Part shown: one piece after another, positions 1 to 317 of the stretch | Position numbering within the stretch: the stretch's first letter is position 1 | Layout: every line of letters begins with the position of its first letter | Assembly (NCBI RefSeq): GCF_003334255.1 | Contig: NZ_QOWU01000264.1 | DNA length: 317 bases | Reading direction: 5' to 3' (one strand) | Origin: Escherichia coli | Lineage (GTDB): Bacteria > Pseudomonadota > Gammaproteobacteria > Enterobacterales > Enterobacteriaceae | Notes under the pieces: model-generated | Told to the model about the DNA's origin: nothing | Database searches by the model: none | Seen by the model: only the letters and a program-made list of their open reading frames with translations | Made by a program: the position numbers and the translations under genes

Positions 1-128
1 GCGGATCAACGCCACCTGTCCAGGCTCCGTGCGTGAAGCCCCCACCACCTCCGGCGTGGATAATGCAACCGGCCCCCGACTGGCAGACACCGCTGAACGG
101 GATTATTTCATCCTCAGAGAGCGGCTGA
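1..128 (+). CDS. Rz1: Rz1-type o-spanin (outer-membrane lipoprotein spanin subunit), C-terminal portion; 5'-partial, embedded in the +1 frame of Rz
   Basis: Frame beginning at position 3 is open to TGA at 126-128. Hand translation: GSTPPVQAPCVKPPPPPAWIMQPAPDWQTPLNGIISSSESG*. The stretch CVKPPPPPAWIMQP.PDWQTPLNGIIS matches the mature C-terminal part of lambda Rz1 as I recall it, including the penta-proline tract and the single periplasmic Cys (codon 30-32). No signal peptide or lipobox is visible in the window, so the start lies upstream. About 11 of the 41 visible residues are Pro, typical of Rz1. Confidence 0.85.
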   Translation, partial: GSTPPVQAPCVKPPPPPAWIMQPAPDWQTPLNGIISSSESG

Positions 129-190
129 TGACGATGCAGAAGCAACTGGAAGGGGCGCAGGAATATATCCGTACTCAGTGCATTAAGTAG
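1..190 (+). CDS. Rz: Rz-type i-spanin (inner-membrane spanin subunit), C-terminal portion; 5'-partial, gene starts upstream of the window
   Basis: Frame beginning at position 2 is open to TAG at 188-190. Hand translation: RINATCPGSVREAPTTSGVDNATGPRLADTAERDYFILRERLMTMQKQLEGAQEYIRTQCIK*. This closely matches the C-terminal region of phage lambda Rz as I recall it (motifs SVREA, SGVDNA, PRLADTAERDYF, LRERL, TMQKQLEG, QC near the C-terminus). Both cysteines known to be conserved in the lambda Rz periplasmic domain are present (codons 17-19 and 179-181). Identity recalled from memory, not searched. Confidence 0.9.
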   Translation, partial: RINATCPGSVREAPTTSGVDNATGPRLADTAERDYFILRERLMTMQKQLEGAQEYIRTQCIK

Positions 191-204
191 TCTTTTTATT
201 ATCC

Positions 205-210
205 GGAGGA
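205..210 (+). promoter_or_regulatory. Shine-Dalgarno / ribosome-binding site for the downstream ORF
   Basis: GGAGGA at 205-210, followed by a 3-nt spacer (tgt) and ATG at 214-216. Spacing is on the short side but acceptable. It lies in the 23-nt gap after the Rz stop. Confidence 0.6.
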
Positions 211-213
211 TGT

Positions 214-317
214 ATGAAGAAATTACTGGTAACCGTAAAACCTTTTCAGGGAACAATTCCGTTCCGTATTTTGCAGCGTGGTCGTGTTCTTGTTGAAGGT
301 TCGTTCAGTGGTAAATG
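214..317 (+). CDS. hypothetical protein, N-terminal portion; 3'-partial, runs off the window end
   Basis: ATG at 214 is preceded by the GGAGGA Shine-Dalgarno. The frame is open for 34 codons to the window end: MKKLLVTVKPFQGTIPFRILQRGRVLVEGSFSGK. MKK is a typical N-terminus. No hydrophobic stretch long enough for a signal peptide, and no lipobox Cys, so it is not Bor-like and is probably cytoplasmic. Same strand as Rz with no convincing terminator between them, so it is probably co-transcribed with the lysis genes. I do not recognise the product. Confidence 0.6.
   Translation, partial: MKKLLVTVKPFQGTIPFRILQRGRVLVEGSFSGK

Follow-up and report, generated by a model that had tools for sequence, protein, structure and literature searches.

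The first 128 nucleotides of a 317-nucleotide stretch of Escherichia coli DNA (referred to here as the window, meaning the whole stretch analyzed) can be read in two overlapping forward frames, which raises the question of whether both encode protein and, if so, how the coding constraints of two genes share the same bases. Among the three forward frames of the window, all of which were translated, frame 2 runs on the plus strand from position 2 to 187, followed by a TAG codon at 188 to 190 (RINATCPGSVREAPTTSGVDNATGPRLADTAERDYFILRERLMTMQKQLEGAQEYIRTQCIK), and frame 3 runs on the same strand from 3 to 125, followed by a TGA codon at 126 to 128 (GSTPPVQAPCVKPPPPPAWIMQPAPDWQTPLNGIISSSESG). The fragment encoded by frame 2 alone matches PHROG 13, the Rz-type spanins (5.9e-26), and that encoded by frame 3 alone matches PHROG 3198, the Rz1-type spanins (1.9e-18). 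The corresponding full-length proteins of a relative match the Pfam families PF03245 (Phage_lysis; 2.8e-49, residues 26 to 150) and PF06085 (Rz1; 1.2e-21, residues 20 to 60), and the exact proteins are already in NCBI as "lysis protein" and "Rz1 family lipoprotein", respectively. The description of positions 1 to 128 in the sequence-only reading, as a dual-coding segment with a spanin in each frame, is thus borne out by the translations and by searches that assign both products to the Rz and Rz1 families. Positions 1 to 190 are almost certainly the 3' end of an embedded two-component spanin locus of the lambda family, carried by a lambdoid E. coli prophage of the Stx phage type, and no data contradicting this identification were found. 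The pair is an ordinary copy of the Stx phage type, known already to the level of the exact proteins. A search of NCBIfam gave no matching model for Rz, Rz1, or the open reading frame downstream of them. Naming of the overlapping products in databases is inconsistent, as the Rz1 cluster at 90% identity also includes entries of 63 to 69 amino acids labeled "i-spanin subunit Rz, partial".

The i-spanin gene Rz is represented by its 3' part (positions 1 to 190, plus strand, with the phase set from position 2), an assignment resting on the translation, PHROG 13, PF03245, and alignment to lambda; the window contains the last 62 residues, at the C terminus of the protein. The o-spanin gene Rz1 is represented by the whole of the mature protein (positions 1 to 128, plus strand), with codons 21 to 61 at 3 to 125. 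Each Rz1 codon starts at the second base of an Rz codon, placing Rz1 in the +1 frame, and both frames use all of bases 1 to 128, with the Rz1 stop (126 to 128) lying upstream of the Rz stop (188 to 190). Bases 1 and 2 are the end of the codon for the Rz1 lipobox cysteine, Cys20 (tGC), and base 1 is also the third base of an Rz leucine codon, both as read from the closest relative, whose sequence shows no difference from the window at positions 1 to 190.

Matches to the window occur in 4,520 of 5,426 complete E. coli genomes, and a further 380 come from phage records, most of them of Stx-converting phages, at 90 to 94% identity. E. coli STEC17-183 (locus L001) matches best, at 99.7% identity over the window, and the sole difference lies at window base 240. 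Scans of viral, metagenome, and genome contig collections for exact copies of the stretch around this base had no hit. The Rz1 start, its signal peptide and complete cysteine codon, the Rz helix, and the context of the lysis cassette lie outside the window and were all read from this strain. Its Rz gene occupies 3732 to 4190 and encodes 152 amino acids (annotated as "lysis protein", WP_419180921.1). The +1 frame contains an open reading frame of 61 codons from an ATG, at 3943 to 4128, offset by 211 nucleotides within Rz and encoding MRELKMKLFALTLPLVVSAC followed directly by GSTPPVQAPCVKPPPPPAWIMQPAPDWQTPLNGIISSSESG. The N terminus of Rz1 combines a basic n-region with a hydrophobic core and leads into the lipobox V-S-A-C, with glycine at position +2 (GSTPP at the start of the mature protein), the cysteine codon being at 4000 to 4002 with its final two bases opening the window. 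Using the lipobox consensus [LVI][ASTVI][GAS]C without aspartate at position +2 (PMC6139136), MRELKMKLFALTLPLVVSAC followed by GS was recognized as a lipobox in STEC17-183 and in all 46 unique relatives. The N-terminal segment of Rz, MLSAFIVILLVACGALWMA, is strongly hydrophobic (Kyte-Doolittle mean, 2.46; 19 residues). The upstream features anticipated from the window, an ATG, signal peptide, and lipobox for Rz1 and a hydrophobic N-terminal helix for Rz, are therefore all present in the closest relative, as is the embedded lambda-type architecture that had been proposed, with Rz1 (3943 to 4128) inside Rz (3732 to 4190) at a +1 offset.

In STEC17-183 and in a second close relative (L002), the gene order is a class II holin, a lysozyme, two small open reading frames, Rz with Rz1, a 74-codon open reading frame, and packaging genes including the terminase, and the holin, lysozyme, Rz/Rz1, terminase, and portal genes are annotated as intact. 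The two small open reading frames between lysozyme and Rz (3392 to 3574, 60 amino acids, and 3589 to 3720, 43 amino acids, in STEC17-183) belong to PHROG 1115 and PHROG 4906, both without an assigned function; the second is hydrophobic, and lambda has nothing at this place. Between the holin and the lysozyme of STEC17-183, positions 1873 to 2118 hold a DUF1327 pseudogene and a hypothetical gene on the reverse strand, because of which the lysis cassette of this strain is considered rearranged, though its four lysis genes still look intact.

Both ends of Rz vary among the relatives. The start in STEC17-183 is ambiguous (3717 to 3734): PGAP takes the ATG at 3732 (152 amino acids), and an alternative GTG at 3717, which overlaps the TGA of the upstream small open reading frame (GTGA), would give a protein of 157 amino acids beginning MNINRMLSAF. 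Many relatives carry GTT, GTA, or ATT at the position of the ATG taken by PGAP, and in these the Rz start must be upstream (MNRVLCVV). The Rz stop has been lost in 4 of the 46 unique relatives (L002, with Rz at 2732 to 3217, L048, L055, and L075), where Rz gains nine codons, reaching 486 nucleotides and ending in QCTKLAFYYPEDT, and so extends across the beginning of the downstream open reading frame.

The remainder of the window lies outside the spanin pair. An intergenic spacer of 23 bases (191 to 213, plus strand) carries the Shine-Dalgarno-like sequence GGAGGA at 205 to 210, and directly after it an open reading frame begins with ATG at 214 and runs off the window end (214 to 317, plus strand). 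This gene is complete in STEC17-183 (4214 to 4438, 74 codons, WP_000735655.1, "hypothetical protein"), matches PHROG 2571, a family without an assigned function, and is open in nine unique copies, but a Pfam search returned no match for it. It follows Rz directly with a good Shine-Dalgarno sequence, and the region is common to just 16 of the loci examined. A promoter scan of the window returned no promoter-like site, and one weak terminator-like hairpin was found at 250 to 265, inside the downstream open reading frame. The only RNA element match, to the AilA thermometer in Rfam, was dismissed as chance (E=0.75; 20 bits, where the gathering score is 81), and the short minus-strand open reading frame at 6 to 68 and the one from the ATG at 210 (28 codons) were set aside as mechanical and without support.

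The conservation of the two frames was followed in two samples, one of the Stx type (80 loci, giving 46 unique Rz genes together with those of STEC17-183 and L002) and one of the lambda type (80 loci, giving 37 unique sequences with lambda itself counted). The Rz1 ATG, length, lipobox cysteine, and stop are kept in 46 of 46 and 37 of 37 unique sequences, respectively, with a length of 61 codons in the Stx type and 60 in the lambda type, and none of these 46 and 37 copies carries a frame-disrupting change in Rz1. The alignment of related copies, in which disrupted frames would have spoken against an embedded gene, thus showed disruption in 0 of 83 unique sequences. The expectation that a single-frame gene caller would miss Rz1 also held: PGAP annotated Rz alone and left out Rz1 in both STEC17-183 and L002, and both genes are annotated in just 5 of 40 evenly sampled phage records.

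We infer function for this Rz/Rz1 copy and for its prophage, and a functional lysis module is consistent with what surrounds the pair in the nearest relatives, an intact holin-lysozyme-Rz/Rz1-terminase series. Intact genes may also belong to a relic module in a defective or cryptic prophage, where they would have ceased to serve lysis, their intactness being due to recent descent or to recombination with active phages and not to selection in place. We consider this unlikely here, although not to the point of being negligible. It would fit the number of copies, as the window matches a median of 2 and a maximum of 13 places per E. coli genome, many of which will be in decayed prophages, and it would fit the pseudogene inside the STEC17-183 cassette. 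Arguing against a relic are the lysis, terminase, and portal genes annotated as intact in the nearest relatives, the lack of disruption among the 83 unique sequences, and a substitution pattern, described below, that reflects selection across the family.

In a +1 overlap, the wobble site of Rz is the second codon position of Rz1, and the wobble site of Rz1 is the first codon position of Rz, so that the two genes leave different traces in natural variation. Nucleotide diversity at the third positions of Rz codons falls from 0.207 (upstream) and 0.233 (downstream) to between 0.062 and 0.066 within the overlap, a decrease of about threefold, and 17 of 62 Rz third positions segregate in the overlap compared with 52 of 90 outside (Fisher p=2.6e-4). 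Variant alleles were also counted per weighted mutational opportunity, in place of a formal overlapping-gene dN/dS model, over the mature-Rz1 part of the overlap except for the Rz-only class. The resulting rates, which take no account of phylogeny or recombination, were 0.18 to 0.31 for Rz-only synonymous changes, 0.10 for changes synonymous in Rz and nonsynonymous in Rz1, 0.14 for changes nonsynonymous in Rz and synonymous in Rz1, and 0.06 for changes nonsynonymous in both frames. The same tendency appears at a greater distance: the window differs from lambda at 7 of 100 nucleotides in positions 29 to 128 and at 18 of 59 in positions 129 to 187 (p=1.8e-4), with 0 of the 7 and 10 of the 18 differences at Rz wobble sites, and 4 of the 7 leave Rz1 unchanged while altering Rz.

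A third gene on the opposite strand would make part of positions 1 to 128 triply coding. An antisense frame codon aligned to Rz is open from window position 305 down to 1 on the minus strand (3936 to 4256 in STEC17-183, 106 codons). It matches PHROG 17757 (7e-46; function unassigned), 35 of 43 unique relatives keep it open, and its wobble sites coincide with those of Rz1, so that within the Stx-type clade the overlap's synonymous counts do not speak against it. An antisense frame in this alignment is closed only where the sense strand uses one of the rare codons TTA, CTA, and TCA, and shadow frames are therefore commonly open. Stops interrupt the frame in lambda and in 8 of the 43 relatives, and of the 36 variant alleles in the Rz-only part, 29 alter the antisense protein and one creates a stop, so that no synonymous bias is seen; moreover, its TTG start lies in the downstream region common to only 16 of the loci examined. 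A real antisense gene is accordingly very improbable, and the frame was rejected as a shadow open reading frame that the annotation of some phage records treats as a gene; PHROG 17757 would most simply be a collection of miscalled open reading frames.

For the two sense frames, the question is how much openness alone reveals. When the Rz peptide was recoded with synonymous codons, chosen uniformly or by phage codon usage, the +1 frame stayed open over its 41 window codons in 22% and 58% of recodings, respectively, and over the full 61 codons in 10 to 41%. Because so many recodings stay open, the intactness of both frames is in itself weak evidence of purifying selection. Homology and the substitution pattern are far beyond chance. 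The possibility that the +1 frame is open by chance or composition, with Rz the sole real gene and Rz1 not made here, can be dismissed as extremely improbable, since the openness of the recodings and the omission of Rz1 by annotation pipelines, which would favor it, are outweighed by the Pfam Rz1 match, the conservation of the ATG, signal peptide, and lipobox throughout the 46 and 37 unique copies, the reduced Rz wobble diversity within the overlap, variation at Rz1 wobble positions in 29 to 72, and the finding that in lambda both products are made and both are required for outer membrane disruption, with Rz1 experimentally essential (PMC5295617). The sequence-only reading had concluded from the two intact frames that purifying selection acts on both products. 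The conclusion is upheld by homology and by the roughly threefold lower wobble diversity; the inference from open frames alone was weak, and selection does not act on both products at every base.

Mapped along the window, the variable sites divide into blocks. In positions 1 to 28 (plus strand), where GSTPPVQAP, the linker that follows the lipid anchor of Rz1, is read together with RINATCPGS of Rz, including the cysteine equivalent to lambda C99, 3 of 9 first, 2 of 9 second, and 7 of 10 third positions of Rz codons are variable. In positions 29 to 72 (plus strand), Rz1 contains Cys30 (codon 30 to 32), the penta-proline stretch (39 to 53), and AWIMQPA, and Rz contains its flexible linker L2, VREAPTTSGVDNATG; here the variable sites number 10 of 15, 3 of 15, and 2 of 14, and variation is concentrated at Rz first positions, which are the wobble positions of Rz1. 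The contrast between these two blocks in the codon position that varies has a Fisher p value of 0.027. In positions 73 to 110 (plus strand), which contain PDWQTPLNGIIS of Rz1 (delimited as DWQTPLNGIIS for the counts) and PRLADTAERDYF of Rz, variability is low at all three codon positions (4 of 13, 4 of 12, and 3 of 13), and there are zero differences from lambda. Rz1 in this block carries the equivalents of the lambda mutation-sensitive residues W46, L50, and I54, and Rz begins coiled coil 2, with the equivalent of Y127. Positions 111 to 128 (plus strand) encode the C-terminal tail of Rz1, SSESG, and its stop. Positions 129 to 187 (plus strand) are read in Rz only, as the C-terminal part of coiled coil 2, and show the ordinary pattern of a single gene, with 9 of 19, 7 of 20, and 16 of 20 variable positions.

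Constraint on the overlap is therefore mostly partitioned: Rz leads in positions 1 to 28, Rz1 leads in 29 to 72, and both are conserved in 73 to 110. Purifying selection holds for both genes, but for any one base it acts mostly in one frame at a time, and only about 38 bases (73 to 110) look constrained in both. It is this partitioning, by and large, that lets the overlap persist. The sequence critical to Rz1, its cysteine and proline-rich region, sits over the flexible linker of Rz, and the sequence critical to Rz sits over the linker of Rz1. Mutagenesis of disembedded lambda genes had led to the same picture (Cahill et al. 2017, PMC5295617), with mutationally sensitive stretches of either gene facing silent stretches of its partner. 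In that work, lambda Rz residues 100 to 115 could be replaced by a Ser-Gly linker and Rz1 residues 25 to 30 by Gly-Ser repeats, the mutationally sensitive positions of Rz1 were P32, P33, P35, P36, I39, W46, L50, and I54, and P34 tolerated alanine (PMC5295617). All eight sensitive positions are invariant in 46 of 46 Stx-type copies, and the tolerant P34 position varies, being A or S among the Stx-type copies and, in some of the lambda type, R.

The lambda pair shares most of its organization with that of the window. Rz1 lies wholly inside Rz in the +1 frame in both, the Pfam families are the same, and both the lambda pair and the STEC17-183 pair are positioned after the holin and endolysin. The lambda cysteines Rz C99, Rz C152, and Rz1 C29, which are known to form homotypic disulfides in that phage, all have equivalents in the window, the two in Rz (codons 17 to 19 and 179 to 181) being periplasmic, and the penta-proline stretch and the equivalents of I39, W46, L50, and I54 are common to both Rz1 proteins. 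Rz is about 74% and Rz1 about 69% identical in protein sequence to the lambda counterpart. The differences include the Rz1 linker, GSTPPVQAP here and TSKQSVSQ in lambda, which is one residue longer here, with a 3-nucleotide indel in block 1 to 28, and the Rz1 substitutions P43A, P56S, and R59S. The first of these accounts for QPAPDW in the window as opposed to QPPPDW in lambda, a difference pointed out in the sequence-only reading and confirmed on the translated lambda Rz1. The C terminus of Rz reads QCIK here and QCR in lambda, extending one residue further past the last cysteine.

The lambda salt bridge pair, Rz E150 and Rz1 R59, is replaced by threonine (173 to 175) and serine (Ser60, 120 to 122) in the window. 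Nearly all Stx-type copies have threonine paired with serine or asparagine at these positions, and one copy has glutamate and asparagine. Covariance of E150 and R59 and a dispensable Rz1 tail have been published for lambda (Cahill et al. 2017, PMC5295617), and the Thr/Ser pair found here fits that work as a polar/polar state of the covarying pair. Among other phages, the Rz/Rz1 genes of Stx-converting and other lambdoid E. coli prophages (for example, Stx2a and Stx2c phages, H-19B, and ASU11) form the clade to which the window belongs. Whole-window DNA identity within this clade, including the downstream open reading frame, is 90 to 94% in 25 phage records and 99.7% in STEC17-183, and its members have the same Rz1 length (61 amino acids) and lipobox, with point differences only. 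Spanins of P2 (LysB/LysC, overlapped), T4 (pseT.3/pseT.2, separated), and T1 (gp11, unimolecular) differ from the window pair in gene arrangement, and their sequences are unrelated or very distant, the only trace being a weak match to LysC in Pfam (E=0.2). They perform the same job, forming a complex that bridges the inner and outer membranes and removes the outer membrane at lysis (PMC6139136).

By analogy with lambda, Rz would be located in the inner membrane with its N terminus in and its C terminus out (PMC5295617, PMC6139136), and Rz1, which has glycine and not aspartate at position +2, would be lipidated and delivered to the outer membrane. Each subunit would form a disulfide-linked homodimer, and the C termini of Rz and Rz1 would bind one another across the periplasm. 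The resulting complex would fuse the inner and outer membranes after the action of the holin and endolysin, thereby completing lysis.

The natural variation of these prophages independently reproduces the picture of partitioned constraint obtained in lambda, as confirmation and not as discovery. The chief value of the finding lies in annotation, as Rz1 is still missing from most records. In Stx-converting phages, lysis releases both phage and toxin, and recognizing an intact spanin pair helps in judging whether a prophage is able to complete its cycle.
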